The notes under the pieces: generated by a model
The model's input: only the letters and a program-made list of their open reading frames with translations
Database searches by the model: none
What the model was told of the DNA's origin: nothing
Assembly: GCA_964447515.1 (NCBI GenBank)
Contig: CAYUSS010000004.1
Location: 532-64,531, forward strand
Origin: an uncultured Candidatus Saccharibacteria bacterium
GTDB taxonomy: Bacteria > Patescibacteriota > Minisyncoccia > Minisyncoccales > GWA2-38-27
Length of the DNA: 64,000 nucleotides
Reading direction: 5' to 3'
Program-made: the position numbers and the translations under genes
Shown here: positions 24,698-61,899 of the stretch, piece by piece
How the letters are laid out: each line of letters starts with the position of its first letter
Position numbering within the stretch: the first letter of the stretch is position 1

Positions 24698-26716
24698 ATG
24701 ATGATGAGAACAAAAATTTTCTTAATTTCTTTTATTTTAAGTTTAGCTTTCTGGTGGGGGATAAATAGTTTGGTAGAGAATTTAGAAGATTTTTTATTTT
24801 GGCAGGAAATATCTAAACAGCCGGGAATATTTACTGCCAAGGCAAGTCAACAAATTCCTAGAAACGAAGTAGAGAGATTAAGGTTTGAAAGACTACAAAC
24901 CGAATTAAAAAATTTAAAAATTGAGGCCAAAGCTGCAATTTCGGTTTTGATAAATGGTAATGGAGAGGAAAGAATTCTTTTTGGAAAAAATACTGACCAG
25001 AGATTATCAATTGCTAGTTTGACCAAATTAATGACCGCCCTTATTGTTCTGGAAAATTATGACCTTTCAAGAGAAATTACGATTTCTAAAGAAGCTATTA
25101 ACCAGCCGGGGGATTTTGGGAAATTAGAAGCAGGAAAGAATTTTCCGGTGAGATATTTACTTTATCCCTTATTAATAGAATCAAGCAATGATGCTGCTTT
25201 CTCTTTAGCCAATGATTACGAAGAGATGACAGAAGAAAAATTTGTTGAGTTGATGAATTTGGAAGCCCAAAAAATGAATCTGGAGAATACTTTTTTTGTT
25301 AATTCTACCGGTATTGACCCCAAGGAACCGGAAACCGAAATAAACAATGAGACGTTTAACGTCTCATGTGAGGGAAATTATTCAACTGCTGCTGATTTGG
25401 TTAAATTTACTAAAGAATTATTTAAAAAACCCTTAATTTGGGAAATTCTTTCTACCCCGGAATTTAATCTTTATGGACCAAAACTTATTAATACTAATGA
25501 GCTTTTAGAAGAATCTCTCGGTTGGTCGAACAGAATTATTGGAGGGAAAACCGGCGAAACCCCTCAAGCTAATGGTTGTTTTCTTTTAGTTCTTAAAACC
25601 CCTCAATCAGATTACTTAATAAATATAGTTTTGGGTTCAAACGACCGCTTTGGAGAAATGCGAAAATTATTAAATTGGCTGGAGAAAAAAGAAGAAGTAA
25701 ACCCCGTTAGAGATTCCGAGAGTAGAGAAGAAGCACAGAAAAAGGGTATCTCTAACGGGGCAAAAACTTTTGACCCGGCTTTATTGGAGTGGGAAGAGAT
25801 AACCTCTAATGCTCCCTGGTCTCCAAGAGACTCCCATGGTACTGTAGTTTTTCAAAATAAAATTTGGTTAATGGGAGGATTAAATGGAAATGGGTTTCAA
25901 GATAAAAATGGCAATGTTCCTTATTGGAGAGTACCTCATTATAGTGATGTTTGGTCTTCAAAAGACGGAAGAAATTGGCAGCTTGTTACTAAAAATGCTC
26001 CCTGGGGTAAAAAAAGGTCAATGCAAGCCATAGTTTTTAAAAATAAAATCTGGTTAATTGGGGGCTGGGGACCGGAAATTGGATATTCAAATGATATCTG
26101 GGTTACAGAAAATGGAATTGATTGGGAAAAGATAGAACCAAAAGGAGAATTACCGGCAGTGGAAGGAGACCAGTTAGTTGTTTTTGAAGACAAATTATGG
26201 TTAATTGGCGGAGTAAGATACGACGAAAGAAAGGAAAAAAATTATGTTTGGGTTTCTGAAGACGGCATTAATTGGACTGAAGCTACTGAAAGAGCGCCTT
26301 GGTCGCCGAGATGGGATCATACGGTAACCGTATTTAAAAATAAATTGTGGCTTATTGGCGGTATGAATTTAGAGGGAGAAATTTACCAGGATGTCTGGAG
26401 TTCTCAAGATGGGAAAAATTGGTTATTAGTTACCGATAATCCGCCTTGGCGGGGGAGACAAGGGCATGGCTCGGTAGTTTTTCAAAATAAAATTTGGATT
26501 ATTGGAAGACTTAATGGCAAAAGTACTGGTGGAGATAATGATGTTTGGTATTCAGAAGATGGTTATACTTGGGGAAAAACCCAAAAAAATGCTCCCTGGT
26601 TAGGCAGGGAAGATATTGGGGTTTTGGTCTTTAAAGATAAGATATGGGCATTAGGAGGAATGGATGGTAACTCGGAATGGAAAAATGATATTTGGTTTTC
26701 AATTTTCTCTCCTTAA
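24698..26716 (+). CDS. D-alanyl-D-alanine carboxypeptidase (S11) fused to a C-terminal Kelch-type beta-propeller
   Basis: SxxK SLTKLMT, SSND, and a KTG-like motif (GGKTGET). C-terminal half has about 6 repeats of W(S/G)PR..H..VVF.NK(I/L)WL(I/M)GG. The linker at 25701-25760 is a palindromic element. Confidence 0.75.
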   Translation: MMMRTKIFLISFILSLAFWWGINSLVENLEDFLFWQEISKQPGIFTAKASQQIPRNEVERLRFERLQTELKNLKIEAKAAISVLINGNGEERILFGKNTDQRLSIASLTKLMTALIVLENYDLSREITISKEAINQPGDFGKLEAGKNFPVRYLLYPLLIESSNDAAFSLANDYEEMTEEKFVELMNLEAQKMNLENTFFVNSTGIDPKEPETEINNETFNVSCEGNYSTAADLVKFTKELFKKPLIWEILSTPEFNLYGPKLINTNELLEESLGWSNRIIGGKTGETPQANGCFLLVLKTPQSDYLINIVLGSNDRFGEMRKLLNWLEKKEEVNPVRDSESREEAQKKGISNGAKTFDPALLEWEEITSNAPWSPRDSHGTVVFQNKIWLMGGLNGNGFQDKNGNVPYWRVPHYSDVWSSKDGRNWQLVTKNAPWGKKRSMQAIVFKNKIWLIGGWGPEIGYSNDIWVTENGIDWEKIEPKGELPAVEGDQLVVFEDKLWLIGGVRYDERKEKNYVWVSEDGINWTEATERAPWSPRWDHTVTVFKNKLWLIGGMNLEGEIYQDVWSSQDGKNWLLVTDNPPWRGRQGHGSVVFQNKIWIIGRLNGKSTGGDNDVWYSEDGYTWGKTQKNAPWLGREDIGVLVFKDKIWALGGMDGNSEWKNDIWFSIFSP

Positions 26717-48355: not shown

Positions 48356-48429
48356 GCCCCCATAGCTCAACTAGGTAGAGCAGGATCCTTTTAAGATCAA
48401 GGTTCTCCGTTCGATTCGGAGTGGGGGCA
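48356..48429 (+). tRNA. tRNA-Lys (anticodon UUU)
   Basis: Manual cloverleaf: acceptor GCCCCCA/TGGGGGC, D arm GCTC..GAGC, anticodon arm GGATC-CTTTTAA-GATCA, T arm CTCCG-TTCGATT-CGGAG. No encoded CCA. Confidence 0.9.
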
Positions 48430-52595: not shown

Positions 52596-52632
52596 GAACC
52601 TCGCCTTCGGCGAGAACCTTGATTCGCCAAGG
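52594..52632 (+). repeat. AAGAACC-hairpin-GAACCTTGATTCGCYAAGG element (3' of rplI)
   Basis: AAGAACCTCGCCTTCGGCGAGAACCTTGATTCGCCAAGG begins at the rplI stop codon. Confidence 0.75.
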
Positions 52633-52661
52633 TATAAATAAACATATTGCGGCTTCGCCGC

Positions 52662-52725
52662 ATAATTGCTTCGCTCGGTTGAAAAAGAAAAATAAACTTT
52701 TCTTTTTCTCTCTCGTTTGCAATTA
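52662..52725 (+). promoter_or_regulatory. conserved 64-nt leader motif (outer stem AATTGC/GCAATT, inner 11-bp purine/pyrimidine hairpin) upstream of pyrG
   Basis: GAAAAAGAAAA 52681-52691 pairs with TTTTCTTTTTC 52698-52708. About 80 percent identical to 60952-61015, upstream of the nuclease gene. Confidence 0.6.
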
Positions 52726-52738
52726 TAATCTTGAATTA

Positions 52739-57580: not shown

Positions 57581-57621
57581 AAGAACCTCTCGCTTCGCTC
57601 GAGAACCTTGATTCGCTAAGG
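57581..57621 (+). repeat. AAGAACC-hairpin-GAACCTTGATTCGCYAAGG element
   Basis: AAGAACCTCTCGCTTCGCTCGAGAACCTTGATTCGCTAAGG. Its first 31 nt are identical to the copy inside murC (16403-16433). Confidence 0.8.
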
Positions 57622-57746
57622 AATAATCATATAATCTTGAATTAAGATTAAAAATCAGCCCTTATAGGGCTGATTTTTACTTCCAAAATTTGTCAAAATT
57701 GGAAAACTACCCAAAGTAAGTTAAAATAGAAACAGTTAACAAAAAA

Positions 57747-58352
57747 ATGAGAAAATTTTTTGAAAAGAATAAGATATTTATCACCATAATAATAGCCGGC
57801 TTGATAGTTGGAGGGGTATTTTGGTTTTTTTGGCCCCAAACTCCAAAAGATTTTGAAGAATTAACTGGCAAAACCCAGGCGTGTATAGATTCAGGAGGAG
57901 TTGTTGGCACTGGATTGTGCTGTGAATCAACAGGTGATTTTCCAGACACTTGCGCAATTGGCGCCTGCGGTTGCGCTCCGGAGTATAGTCATTCAGTAAA
58001 AATCTGTGATTGTGGGAAAGACAAATGTTTTAATGGGAAGCAATGTGTTTATTTTAAAGAAACGCAGGAGAAAGAAATTATTTCCCCCGCTTCATATCAT
58101 ATAGAAAATCCTCCTTATTATAGAGAGGATGGTTTTTGCTGGGGAGCTAGCGCAATAATGTTGATGATGGATCATAGTTTGCCAGAAAATGAAGTTCAGA
58201 ACATTAGAACCGTTCTTAAAAGCGGTCCCGGGGGAACGCCCGATATGTTTATGGGATTCCATGCTTTCGGGGTGATTGATAAGGTCAGGATTGCTTATTC
58301 AAATTTCTCCCTCATTTATAATTATTGTCTTGAATCAAATATCTGTGGATAA
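57747..58352 (+). CDS. membrane-anchored Cys-rich protein with a truncated papain/C39-like segment
   Basis: Signal anchor MRKFFEKNKIFITIIIAGLIVGG, Cys-rich module C..SGG....CC....FP..C.IGACGC.......CDCG..KCF.G..C, then FCWGASAIMLMM. Confidence 0.45.
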   Translation: MRKFFEKNKIFITIIIAGLIVGGVFWFFWPQTPKDFEELTGKTQACIDSGGVVGTGLCCESTGDFPDTCAIGACGCAPEYSHSVKICDCGKDKCFNGKQCVYFKETQEKEIISPASYHIENPPYYREDGFCWGASAIMLMMDHSLPENEVQNIRTVLKSGPGGTPDMFMGFHAFGVIDKVRIAYSNFSLIYNYCLESNICG

Positions 58353-58395
58353 CTTATTTTCAAAAAATTGCTTATAGAGTTAAAATAAAATAATT

Positions 58396-60045
58396 ATGGG
58401 ATTATTTAAGAAAATTAAACATTTCCTTAAAAAAAGAAGACGTTTGGTGATGGGTTTTTTTATAGCGGTATCTGTTGTTTGTTTATTCGTATATTTCGCA
58501 GCCACTCCTAACATTCAATTTGAAGTTTTAACTCCCAAACACCTAATAAGTTCTGTCTATAAGGTATACGGGAATCCCGATATTGGTTTTTGGTGCGGTA
58601 AAACCGTAATAACAAATACAGGGGATGGCCCGGCATATGATTTAAAAGTATCTTATAAAGTTGAAGGATATACCGACTGGAATGAATCTGTGACTTATCC
58701 AATATTATTGTCCGGCAGTACTGTTGTAGATTTATATTATCCAATATTGCCAAAAGAAATAACAGATTTAAAAACTCCTACTCCTTCCAATATTAAAATT
58801 AAAATTACTTATGCCGAATCGCCCGGGGGCTCGCAGAAAGAAATTACTCAAAATAAATCTATAATGATTCTTGGAAGCCGCGATTTTGTATTTAGCAGTA
58901 TCCTTCCGGAAGAGAGTACCGGAAGTTTTCTTGATAATTTCAGTAATTATCCTCTTTTAGCGGCTCGGGTTACTCCGGCCGATCCGGTTCTTATGAGTTT
59001 TGCCGATATGGGGAATAAACTTGCCGGCGGTCCGGGGGCAAGCCTTTCAGATGACGAAGCTATAAGATCCCTTTCGGGAATATGGCGGGTAGCGGTAAAT
59101 AACAGAATACAATACAAAACAGAACCTTTGGCGTTTTGGACTGGAGAATTTGCTCAATTTATAAAATATCCCAGAGACGTAATAAAAGACAAAGCAGGCA
59201 CTTGTATTGATACGGCGTTATTTTTTGCTTCCGCTGCCGCATCTCAGGGCTTAAAACCTTTTATAATTCTTATGCCGGGACACGCTTTTACTGTCATTCA
59301 ACTGCCCAGCGGAACAAACATAGCTGTAGAAACAACTGCTTTGAATGACAGGGCATCCTTTGGGCAAGCAGTAGATCTTGGAAGTAGAGTTTATAATGAC
59401 GCAATACAGGGACCTTATATTATTGTAGATGTTATAACCCTCCAATCATTAGGAATAACTCCTCCGGAGCTTGAAGAGTTGCCTTCTGACGCTCTTGAAA
59501 AATGGGGAATCAGTATGGCAGGAAGCGGATCTTCAGCGCAACCTCAACCCCAACCTCAACCTCAGCCCCAACCTCAACCCGAACCTCAACCTCAACCCGG
59601 ACCCCAGCCCCAACCCGGAGAAGAAGATTATGTTAACTATGCCAATCCTTATTATCCGGAATGGAATATTTCTTATCCAAATAGTTGGTCAATTCTCCAG
59701 TGGGTGAATGAGATTGATTTATATTCTCCTTCCAAGCAAGTGAGATTTGTTATAGCTTGGGGTTATGGAATGAGCGCCGACCAAGCCAGAAGCACTATGG
59801 AAAATTTTGTGCTGAAGCCGATGGGTGTCCAGACAACAAACGAAAACCCGGATAATGTTTGCGGCATTTCAGCTACTGAAGTGGAATATCAAGGCACGAC
59901 TAACGGTGTAACTTATCTTTTTTACGCTAGATATTTTCAGGCAAAAAATCACGGATTTGCTATTATATATAATTTTCCCAACGACGCGAACTCTAAAAGT
60001 AATTCAGAAACTTGTGAAACCGTTTTGAGAAATTTTGCTCTATAA
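58396..60045 (+). CDS. membrane-anchored transglutaminase-like protein with a (PQ)n linker
   Basis: TM anchor. Cys-His core GTCIDTALFFASAA...LMPGHAFTV. Low-complexity tract QPQPQPQPQPQPQPEPQPQPGPQPQPG encoded at 59536-59615. Confidence 0.55.
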   Translation: MGLFKKIKHFLKKRRRLVMGFFIAVSVVCLFVYFAATPNIQFEVLTPKHLISSVYKVYGNPDIGFWCGKTVITNTGDGPAYDLKVSYKVEGYTDWNESVTYPILLSGSTVVDLYYPILPKEITDLKTPTPSNIKIKITYAESPGGSQKEITQNKSIMILGSRDFVFSSILPEESTGSFLDNFSNYPLLAARVTPADPVLMSFADMGNKLAGGPGASLSDDEAIRSLSGIWRVAVNNRIQYKTEPLAFWTGEFAQFIKYPRDVIKDKAGTCIDTALFFASAAASQGLKPFIILMPGHAFTVIQLPSGTNIAVETTALNDRASFGQAVDLGSRVYNDAIQGPYIIVDVITLQSLGITPPELEELPSDALEKWGISMAGSGSSAQPQPQPQPQPQPQPEPQPQPGPQPQPGEEDYVNYANPYYPEWNISYPNSWSILQWVNEIDLYSPSKQVRFVIAWGYGMSADQARSTMENFVLKPMGVQTTNENPDNVCGISATEVEYQGTTNGVTYLFYARYFQAKNHGFAIIYNFPNDANSKSNSETCETVLRNFAL

Positions 60046-60057
60046 TTTTTTAGAACC

Positions 60058-60813
60058 ATGAAAGAAATTAAAATTCTATTTTTATTATCACTGTGTATAA
60101 GTTTGTTTGTTTTTATTGCGCCAGTACCGGTTTCCGCCCAACTTCAGCCCGCTTCTGTTTTAGAAATGACAGACCAGACCGAAATCTCAATTTTAAAAAA
60201 TGGAGATGCAGAAATAAAAGAAACATTAAGTATGTCGCCCAGCGCTTTTATCAACTTTAAACAGAGATTCCCGGTCTTCAGCACCTTTACCCGATTGTTT
60301 AAACCGGCAAATACCCCTCTCCAGATAGAAAATTTAGAGATAAATGTAGATGAAGCAAAAAATCAAATAAATGCGGAATATATAATGAAAGGGGTTTCCA
60401 TAAATAACGGAGATTATTGGGCAACCCAGGCTCTTTCACCCGACCCTAAGCAAAAACCAAATTTAGTTTCCCAAAATGGAAATATCTTGGTTTTTAGTTC
60501 TGTTACCGAAACAGCCCTGGGTATTAAACTAACATCAACTACCACAATCAAACTTCCGGAAGGGGCAAAGAACATTAACTTTGACGCTGAAACAAACGCT
60601 ATAGGTTATGCGTTAGCCGGCCAGGGCACAGGGGGCAATTCTGTCTTTCTCACATTAGCTTTAATTTTTATGGCCTTAGCTGTTTTTAGCTATTTTTTCC
60701 TGAAAGAAAAAAAAGAGGAAAAATCTATTCCAGAAACCCAGATTAAACCCCAAAATCTGCCAATTGAAGAAGAAAAAAACATTTCAGATTCTTCAGAAAG
60801 TAAATGGAGCTAG
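60058..60813 (+). CDS. secreted protein with a C-terminal TM anchor, function unknown
   Basis: Signal peptide ending VSAQ, and C-terminal helix VFLTLALIFMALAVFSYFF followed by an acidic tail. Confidence 0.5.
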   Translation: MKEIKILFLLSLCISLFVFIAPVPVSAQLQPASVLEMTDQTEISILKNGDAEIKETLSMSPSAFINFKQRFPVFSTFTRLFKPANTPLQIENLEINVDEAKNQINAEYIMKGVSINNGDYWATQALSPDPKQKPNLVSQNGNILVFSSVTETALGIKLTSTTTIKLPEGAKNINFDAETNAIGYALAGQGTGGNSVFLTLALIFMALAVFSYFFLKEKKEEKSIPETQIKPQNLPIEEEKNISDSSESKWS

Positions 60814-60951
60814 TAATTGCTTAACTTGATTAAGCAATTATAGTTAAACAGCAGAGACTTGCTCTCTGTTTTTTTTAATCAAAAACCCATCTTGAAAAAC
60901 TCCAATTTTTAACCTAAAATGAAATAAAATTATAGAAGGCTGACACCTTAT

Positions 60952-61015
60952 ATAATTGCGGCACTCGGTCGAAAAAGAAAAATGAATTTTTCTTTTCCTC
61001 CCTCACTTGCAATTA
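60952..61015 (+). promoter_or_regulatory. second copy of the 64-nt leader motif; its 3' stem abuts the nuclease start codon
   Basis: ATAATTGCGGCACTCGGTCGAAAAAGAAAAATGAATTTTTCTTTTCCTCCCTCACTTGCAATTA, with ATG at 61015-61017. Confidence 0.6.
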
Positions 61016-61899
61016 TGAAAAAGTTTTTTGAAAAAAATAAAATATTTATTGCCGTAATAATAGCCGGTTTGATAGTTGGAGGAGCTGTTTATTTTAGTTT
61101 AACTGAATTTGGGAAAGAAAGCCGAGATAGTGGGGGAGAGAATACTGAATGTTTAGCCCCATCTGAAGCAATGGTCACTAAAATTATTGATGGAGATACA
61201 GTAATAGTTGAAGGCGGCGAGCATATCCGGCTTTTAGGCATTGATGCTGATGAATCGGGCTATCCTTGCTATGGACCCGCTAAAACTCGTTTAGAAGAAT
61301 TAGTTTTAAGCAAAAAAGTAAGATTGGAGAAAGATAAAACTGATGTTGACCAATATGGAAGATGTTTAAGATATATTTTTTTAGACGACCAAAATATTGG
61401 CCTTCAATTAGTAAAAGAAGGATTAGCAGTAGCCCGATTTTATGAGCCGGATGTGAAATACAGAGATGAAATTGTTGAAGCGGAAAAACAAGCAATTGAG
61501 AATGAAATCGGCTGTAAATGGAGCAGTACTCCAAAAACACCTTTATTGCCAGCATCTTCAAAAGAATTTGAAGAACTTACTGCTGAAAAAACCAGCTTGG
61601 AAGTAGTTTTCGCCTGCAATGCCGGAAACTATATTGGTCAAGAAATAATAGTTGAAGGCAAGGTTGTTGATACTTATTATGATTCAAAAAGCAACACCGT
61701 ATTCTTAAATTTTGAAAAGCCATATCCCAATCATTGTTTTGTGGGTGTGCTTTTCAGTTCCGACCAATACAAATTCGTCCAAAGCCCGGAAGATTATTAT
61801 TCAAACAAAACCGTGAGAATCAAAGGCGAAATCAAAGAATATGAAGGCAAACCCGAAATTATTTTAGAAACACCAAACCAAATTGAGATAGGGAAGTAA
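61015..61899 (+). CDS. membrane-anchored thermonuclease (SNase-like) with a C-terminal OB-fold-like domain
   Basis: Anchor MKKFFEKNKIFIAVIIAGLIVGG. SNase motifs DGDTV...IRLLGIDA.E and GRCLRYIF..D...LVKEGLA. Start at ATG 61015, not the track start at 60982. Confidence 0.75.
   Translation: MKKFFEKNKIFIAVIIAGLIVGGAVYFSLTEFGKESRDSGGENTECLAPSEAMVTKIIDGDTVIVEGGEHIRLLGIDADESGYPCYGPAKTRLEELVLSKKVRLEKDKTDVDQYGRCLRYIFLDDQNIGLQLVKEGLAVARFYEPDVKYRDEIVEAEKQAIENEIGCKWSSTPKTPLLPASSKEFEELTAEKTSLEVVFACNAGNYIGQEIIVEGKVVDTYYDSKSNTVFLNFEKPYPNHCFVGVLFSSDQYKFVQSPEDYYSNKTVRIKGEIKEYEGKPEIILETPNQIEIGK

Follow-up and report, generated by a model that had tools for sequence, protein, structure and literature searches.

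Why should two otherwise unrelated proteins, encoded close together in one bacterial genome, begin with nearly the same 23 residues? The question is raised by a 64,000-nucleotide stretch of DNA from a tiny, symbiotic-type uncultured Candidatus Saccharibacteria bacterium (contig CAYUSS010000004.1; here called the window), an AT-rich sequence (GC ~34%) whose genes have named homologues in Patescibacteria of the candidate phyla radiation. Four genes, which we call A, B, C and D, lie on the same strand at 57747-61899, and the proteins in question are the products of the first and the last. A first-pass annotation of the window had described all four as membrane-anchored or secreted, and we recovered each element where it had been placed: by hydropathy, A, B and D each carry one N-terminal transmembrane segment, and C has a signal peptide and a C-terminal transmembrane helix. 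The arrangement is real and an assembly artefact is excluded, because several metagenomes and SRA runs yielded the same A sequence, on 7 contigs in all (6 places read); those contigs that cover 57747-61899 are 99.9-100% identical to the window, the exception being L009, which has a 27-bp deletion. We consider it probable that a D-type anchor replaced the N-terminus of A through an old recombination, that D is an ordinary member of the SNase family and that B and C are an unrelated bystander pair.

The shared sequence forms a direct repeat of 81 nt (57747-57827 versus 61015-61095, + strand, 83% identity). Over the first 23 codons, A and D agree at 20 of 23 amino acids and 60 of 69 nucleotides (87%), confirming the near-identity reported by the first-pass annotation. 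The copy in A, which we read as D-derived, comprises MRKFFEKNKIFITIIIAGLIVGG at codons 1-23 (57747-57815), after which the repeat continues weakly to 57827. The copy in D, MKKFFEKNKIFIAVIIAGLIVGG(AVYF), would be the original and represents the family-conserved N-terminus of SNase-family proteins, with a basic head, FFEKNK, and behind it a helix rich in Ile and Gly. No other such pair exists in the window: a 26-nt core of the repeat has exactly 2 occurrences in 64 kb, where shuffles expect 0, and when the 18 open reading frames (ORFs) whose N-termini are hydrophobic were compared with the anchor, A and D alone matched it, at BLOSUM scores of 111 and 133, respectively; no other exceeded 34. These counts do not describe a generic signal sequence shared by most secreted proteins of the genome.

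The decisive evidence for copying lies at the level of protein families, not in DNA identity. All 29 D orthologues inspected (59-87% identity) start M..FFEKNKIF(L/I)A(I/V)..G(A)LI.G.A.YF, and the mean majority fraction per alignment column among D orthologues is 0.75 in the anchor, compared with 0.82 in the SNase domain, 0.81 in the tail and 0.39-0.44 in the linkers. FFEKNK is absent from the N-termini of all ~60 A relatives, which are of the MKKIFLIITIIVLAGTAFWFF type. From residue 24 on (VFWFFWPQ), A matches its own family; in a database of 5.8 billion proteins, this genome's own D (P0064) was the one match to A confined to the N-terminus. Residues 9-23 of A agree with D at 13 of 15 positions, AGLIVGG included, and among the D orthologues examined AGLIVGG is confined to this genome's D and a metagenomic orthologue, L142. 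The closest D orthologues carry AGLIIGG, so that the version in A is that of its own genome's D. Since the anchor is a hallmark of the SNase family and is missing from A relatives, the copying must have run from D to A. The first-pass annotation had proposed cassette-like reuse of an export module, and part of that proposal stands: the anchor of one gene was indeed reused by another, and it is not generic. There is no free-standing cassette, however; a native SNase-family N-terminus was copied once.

Wider pattern scans added little. Back-translated FFEKNKIF is too degenerate a pattern and picks up random AT-rich sites in a genome collection, giving 1 SNase-type N-terminus in 120 loci among the matches listed. 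A longer anchor pattern returned 2 matches in a metagenome scan, namely an SNase orthologue and an anchor/OB-only protein; the window's own contigs evidently lie outside that collection. Literature searches found nothing on the SNase-family anchor.

Several points weigh against the copying of a D-type anchor. The same peptides written in genome codon usage already give 54.2 +/- 2.4 identical bases of 69 (78%), so the DNA-level excess (60 versus 54.2 bases, P ~0.011) is modest and draws on 14 synonymous sites only; the same codon is used at 14 of the 20 identical residues, versus 10.6 expected (P ~0.08). A-family anchors themselves hold KIF and IIAG-like strings, and the transmembrane similarity could therefore partly pre-exist. 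The donor could be an unseen D paralogue, the search having covered the 64-kb window. Recombination scars, in the form of flanking repeats or mobile-element genes, were looked for and none were found. The expected identity and the pre-existing strings would also suit convergence, in which A and D acquired independent AT-rich anchors of a generic kind and the DNA identity follows from the peptides plus codon bias, all the more so as the anchor head is made only of amino acids with AT-rich codons. We nevertheless regard convergence as very unlikely. An anchor-like sequence is present in just two of the 18 hydrophobic N-termini of the window, and the 20 identical residues include the FFEKNKIF head, which is conserved across the SNase family and lacking in A relatives. 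The two anchors also share rare codons (ATA four times, GCC and TTG), at the P ~0.011 given above.

Which copy is older can be read from the flanks. The orthologous loci L011 and L012 share a conserved region upstream of D (score 69 versus a shuffle mean of 17), and with it the predicted native D promoter, TTGAAA-17-TAAAAT at 60892..60920 (+). The region upstream of A has no significant similarity to the D promoter region (P 0.44-0.65). These two results identify D as the resident original. We also considered co-duplication of the D promoter with the anchor and rejected it, the local alignment being no better than shuffles. The opposite polarity, with the upstream copy as the original, would hold if an A-B-C block had entered an ancestral D gene just after its anchor and left a target-site-like duplication; the two copies are in fact direct repeats that bracket a 3.27-kb A-B-C segment. 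This is extremely unlikely, as the conserved D promoter and leader sit before the downstream copy while the 5' region of the upstream copy is unrelated, the copies differ by 13%, and there are neither transposase or integrase genes nor meaningful terminal inverted repeats.

If a D-type anchor was copied into A, 23 codons from the start of a D-type gene would have taken the place of the first ~15 codons of an A-family gene. The copied stretch would run from the start codon to the second Gly (~codon 23) and would leave out the D promoter. The event was probably intragenomic, by illegitimate or microhomology-mediated recombination; its 3' junction would lie where both families encode (I)IAG..GG, a microhomology that may have guided it, and the proximity of A and D may have favoured it. 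In both proteins the segment would act as an uncleaved N-in/C-out signal anchor, with the rest of the protein displayed at the surface. The loss of the His-bearing peptidase half of A, described below, would be a separate event. A second resemblance between the two proteins (PKDFEELTG in A, SKEFEELTA in D) might have been left by a larger transfer, but we rejected that reading because A relatives have KDSEEL or EDSxxLT at that place and xFExLT is conserved in its own right among D orthologues.

The transfer appears clearly old, not recent. Across the 23-codon anchor, differences between A and D fall on 6 of 14 synonymous sites and 3 of 55 non-synonymous ones, giving a synonymous divergence (dS) of 0.64, a non-synonymous divergence (dN) of 0.057 and a dN/dS of ~0.09, values that are rough given the few sites. 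For comparison, D and its 87%-identical L011 orthologue differ by a dS of 0.33 over the whole gene. Polarizing the changes with L011 assigned 5 synonymous and 2-3 conservative replacements (K/R, A/T, V/I) to the A branch. The borrowed anchor thus appears to be kept in A by purifying selection, and that maintenance suggests expression of A as an anchored protein, either now or over a long past period.

The rest of the A protein is incomplete. Gene A (57747..58352, +) encodes 201 aa: the D-type signal anchor, a Cys-rich module of 55 residues and 10 Cys (residues 46-100; 57882..58046, +) and the Cys half of a Peptidase_C39_2-like domain (58086..58322, +), with a conserved Cys131 in GFCWGAS and the His/Asp half missing. 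Full-length relatives of 302-335 aa have an anchor, the Cys-rich module, a linker and a Peptidase_C39_2-like domain; A aligns with them through VRIAYS..FYN and then runs through nine unrelated residues to its stop codon. The missing ~125 C-terminal residues include the invariant H243/N246/H247/D263 columns, although the GFCWGAS motif, invariant in the family alignment, is present. Peptidase_C39_2 (PF13529) matches 11 of 12 A-family members and not A, which has no Pfam match at all, and a tblastn search found no remnant of the missing half in the 64-kb window. The description of A as a Cys-rich protein with a truncated C39-like segment was therefore accurate, with 13 Cys in total. The Cys-rich module, which has no Pfam or NCBIfam match, is promiscuous among A relatives: it is extracytoplasmic and fused to many different domains. 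PF27854 ('eight-cysteine cluster') was considered for the module and rejected, because its carriers have a second, C-terminal Cys-rich domain that is the likelier match.

Judged by its predicted residues, A cannot be an active C39-type peptidase, and with the catalytic His half gone a role in host-surface attack seems doubtful. A may work through its Cys-rich module or may be a slowly decaying remnant. In the stronger form of the latter, A is a functional pseudogene left by local rearrangements, in which the borrowed anchor has no function; we give this a minor but real chance. The lost catalytic residues would suit it, as would the absence of the usual downstream partner gene and a gene order that differs in every relative examined. 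Yet all 7 contigs carry the ORF intact and in identical form, the changes on its anchor branch give a dN/dS of ~0.1, the Cys-rich module is complete, and what is left of the peptidase keeps 84-85% identity to full-length homologues. A promoter-like site (TTGGAA-17-TAAAAT; 57699..57727, +; consensus scan) also precedes the gene. Separately, a 16-nt inverted match (94%) links the A anchor head at 57754-57769 to a site just past the A stop codon at 58354-58369 (also 61024-61037); it is AT-rich and nearly self-complementary, and may well be due to chance.

Gene D (61015..61899, +) encodes a 294-aa membrane-tethered SNase-family nuclease, with the SNase domain at residues 49-170 (61159-61524, +) and an OB-like tail at residues 193-294 (61591-61896, +). 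Its family comprises 906 matches, thermonuclease proteins of ~290-300 aa from Patescibacteria and other uncultured groups. The SNase assignment, already made by the first-pass annotation, is secure: PF00565 scores 61.5 bits against a cut-off of 21 (E 1.2e-16), a D-family profile finds staphylococcal nuclease chains in the PDB at E ~1e-12, and an AlphaFold2 (AF2) model with pLDDT 84-96 over the domain matches nuclease A structures by Foldseek (E 4e-10, target TM-score ~0.8). Nuclease A residues D21, R35, D40, E43 and R87 align by BLASTP with D61, R72, D77, E80 and R116 of gene D, all invariant in 30 D orthologues; T41, which we take to be a backbone ligand, aligns with A78. The assignment of the tail as OB-like is plausible. 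Matches to the OB-fold family PF01336 are sub-threshold (E 0.0037-0.19) and cover the whole model in 3 of 4 sequences tested, the fourth, the L143 protein described next, giving no match; in the AF2 model the tail is beta-rich with an inter-strand helix (pLDDT 59-84), and the Foldseek output is dominated by the SNase domain. Conserved cysteines in D would fit an extracytoplasmic location. D would most likely degrade extracellular nucleic acid for nucleotide salvage, a role suggested by its family, its intact catalytic residues and analogy with Staphylococcus aureus Nuc2/NucI and mycoplasma nucleases.

In one metagenomic locus (L143, 5522-5980, - strand), a 152-aa protein joins an SNase-family anchor (MKEFFEKNKIFIAIIIAGFIIGG) directly to an OB-like tail, with no nuclease domain. 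This protein, the conservation of the anchor and the purifying selection on the A copy would all be explained if the SNase-family N-terminus were a portable signal, specific in sequence, for targeting or assembly, for example at a particular surface site or partner. We rate that as unlikely. In a surface nuclease family of presumably nuclease-reliant, nucleotide-auxotrophic bacteria, the unusually conserved N-terminal helix hints at a sequence-specific role.

The leader of D has a history of its own. An insertion of ~83 bp (60930..61012, +), absent from orthologues, holds a 65-nt hairpin element (60952-61016) with a second copy at 52662-52726; the copies are 85% identical and share the termini ATAATTGC...GCAATTAT. 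Both are predicted to form long hairpins (dG ~-17.6 kcal/mol; z -4.2 and -3.1), with one lying 14 nt before the pyrG start codon and the other abutting the D start codon, where it creates an in-frame upstream ATG (60982). An Rfam search with the leader hairpin gave no match. The element could be a small hairpin that is mobile or similar to repetitive extragenic palindromic (REP) sequences, or a 5' leader common to two genes of nucleotide metabolism. The deletion in the population variant L009 (Joint Genome Institute sample 3300031365; ~565-590) corresponds to 60892-60918 and takes out exactly the predicted D promoter; the variant is otherwise identical.

Do the four genes nonetheless belong together? 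The first-pass annotation had suggested a cell-surface cluster serving host-surface attack and nucleic-acid scavenging. A co-selected functional operon of this kind, whose shared anchor would co-localise the first and last products, is favoured by several features. Predictions put all four products outside the cytoplasm or anchor them in the membrane, the genes share a strand with short A-B and B-C gaps, and the anchor is conserved beyond the simple need for a transmembrane helix. Promoter scans, however, placed sites before A, before B and before D, and an intrinsic-terminator-like hairpin with a T-run (60850..60878, +) follows C, which suggests three predicted transcription units: A, B-C and D. 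No relative examined has A-B-C-D synteny. The closest D orthologue is flanked by Band_7 and HhH-GPD genes, and A homologues sit in three other contexts, the full-length ones preceding a gene for an unrelated ~430-aa protein that is absent here. B-C travels alone, even in free-living archaea such as Thermococcus, and A is without its catalytic half. Given the unconserved gene order and the three predicted units, the host-attack cluster is unsupported, and we judge an operon of this sort unlikely. The four genes are a fortuitous neighbourhood, not a dedicated functional cluster, and their juxtaposition looks like a product of the frequent rearrangements typical of such genomes.

The bystander pair deserves attention in its own right. 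Gene B (58396..60045, +) encodes 549 aa with a basic N-terminus, a transmembrane helix (residues 17-35), a beta-rich region, a transglutaminase-like core (~residues 218-320), a PQ-rich linker and a PsbP-like C-terminal domain. T269-C270, G295-H296 and E312 are invariant in 30 B homologues, giving the motif order G-T-C...G-H...E and a putative C270, H296 and E312 core. Profile support is limited to weak matches: DUF553 (PF04473) at E 0.034, the transglutaminase-region segment of NF058533 at E 7e-15 but far below its cut-off, and, across 30 B-family members, DUF553 in 9, Transglut_core2 in 6 and Transglut_core in 1, all sub-threshold; PsbP_2 matches weakly at the C-terminus of family members. 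A B-family profile found no relatives among PDB sequences. B is thus weakly supported as a transglutaminase-like protein, and its earlier description as one with a PQ linker was essentially right, as was that of C as a secreted protein with a C-terminal anchor. The linker is encoded by a (CAACCC)n repeat of period 6 with 13 copies (59539..59616, +; Tandem Repeats Finder), and P/Q-rich linkers are common at this position in the family. Length variation, which the first-pass annotation had proposed to look for in reads, is not seen in the two assemblies that span the repeat (L001 and L003), both of which align without gaps. The exact B protein is absent from a collection of 15 billion proteins, although these two DNA-identical contigs carry a called 549-aa gene, and the B homologue search gave no self-match, possibly as a side effect of the low-complexity PQ stretch.

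Gene C (60058..60813, +) encodes 251 aa with a signal peptide (1-27), a beta-sandwich ectodomain (36-185), a transmembrane helix (194-219) and an acidic tail. Its AF2 model (pLDDT 78; ectodomain mostly >80) has a beta-sandwich and a C-terminal helix, with a best but weak PDB match to the ribophorin I chain of oligosaccharyltransferase (E ~1e-3, TM-score <=0.26). A B homologue is followed directly by a C homologue in six loci, three of them archaeal: L018/L019, L020, L021 (Thermococcus indicus), L144 (a Micrarchaeota-type contig) and L145 (Thermofilum). The C-like ORFs share 33-51% identity with C (E 1e-26 to 1e-65). In bacterial forms of 631-738 aa (P0250-P0287) and in P0324, a C-like domain is fused to the N-terminus of a B-like protein. 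From this adjacency and fusion, B and C appear to be a conserved, independent pair working together, and the gap of 12 nt after B points to co-transcription here.

B relatives are 514-581 aa long and annotated at source as 'cysteine protease' or 'transglutaminase domain-containing'; the closer named ones are archaeal 'cysteine proteases' with 41-48% identity over full length, from Thermococcus, Thermofilum, Infirmifilum, Micrarchaeota, Diapherotrites and Geothermarchaeales. We considered a recent transfer of B-C from archaea and rejected it. B has the highest GC (0.40) of 45 long ORFs in the window, but its third-position GC of 0.30 is ordinary and native-like, so composition gives no signal, leaving the taxonomic distribution as the one suggestive feature. 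The B-C pair falls in no Pfam family and has no solved structure, and literature searches found nothing on it. This uncharacterised, widespread transglutaminase-like module of two genes, sometimes fused and common to Archaea and Bacteria, is perhaps worth more than the shuffling event beside it.

Other repeats occur elsewhere in the window. A double-hairpin element lies just past two stop codons, at 52600-52637 and 57589-57626; the copies are 82% identical, TAATCTTGAATTAA follows both, and the element looks like a repeated 3'-end or intergenic module. Between 500 and 4000 there are several direct repeats of 46-110 nt, 83-96% identical and spaced ~0.9-1.4 kb (for example, 511-620/1421-1530 and 2393-2529/3778-3962). 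One of them holds a tRNA-T-loop-like TTCGAATCC; the only two Rfam tRNAs in the window, at 48356 and 50091, fall outside this region. A coding repeat at 25835-26670, with a period of ~150 nt and six copies sharing GTTTTT.AAAATAAAAT.TGG.T.AT.GG, lies in an ORF (24698-26716) that probably encodes a Kelch/beta-propeller-type repeat protein.

In aggregate, the A and D genes offer a clean, dated example, from the ultra-small and fast-rearranging genomes of Patescibacteria, of an exported protein that gained its membrane anchor by borrowing from a neighbour. The transfer is a known kind of event, domain or signal shuffling, between known kinds of proteins; it is real but modest, and it refines the annotation while leaving current understanding unchanged.

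Several known systems help to place these genes. Similar to S. aureus Nuc2/NucI (NF047694), D places an SNase domain, with its Ca2+-binding and catalytic residues conserved, behind a hydrophobic N-terminal anchor, and the NucI model aligns with D residues 13-165, anchor included. D differs in its extra C-terminal OB-like domain, its lack of a lipobox and its family-conserved anchor, and it scores 82.6 bits against the equivalog cut-off of 250, making it a relative of NucI but no equivalog. For mycoplasmas, whose membrane nucleases are also SNase-like, a part in acquiring nucleotides where biosynthesis is reduced has been described (review PMC12115388). Full-length A relatives resemble C39 peptidases, matching PF13529 in 11 and PF03412 in 7 of 12 cases, and A keeps the Cys motif; in contrast to classical C39 peptidases, the A family has an N-terminal anchor and a Cys-rich module in place of an ABC-transporter context, and A itself is without the His half. 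B shares the G-T-C...G-H...E order of the transglutaminase-like superfamily (PF04473 DUF553, PF13369 and PF01841) at below-threshold scores. PDB 3KD4, a low-probability match in our structure search, combines a beta-sandwich with a transglutaminase-like domain, as in the N-terminal C-B fusions. Descriptions of the known transglutaminase-like families include neither a two-gene arrangement like B-C, in which the partner has its own anchor, nor a PsbP-like domain at the C-terminus.

The closest parallel to the shared anchor itself comes from variable surface proteins. Mycoplasma vsa/vsp and Borrelia vlp/vsp genes encode unrelated or divergent mature proteins that carry a near-identical N-terminal export sequence through recombination, and A and D likewise have unrelated mature parts behind a near-identical N-terminal export sequence. 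Unlike those systems, A and D are only two copies in 64 kb, with 13% nucleotide divergence and upstream regions that are not shared. Of possible switching machinery, no recombinase ORF lies within 55-64 kb, and the inverted matches found are short and AT-rich. We therefore rejected a variable-surface-protein cassette system, given two diverged copies with unshared upstream regions, the lack of a recombinase in 55-64 kb and the lack of significant inverted repeats. Set beside these systems, the pair shows nothing that suggests switching and looks like the outcome of one shuffling event long ago, not like a system for variation.

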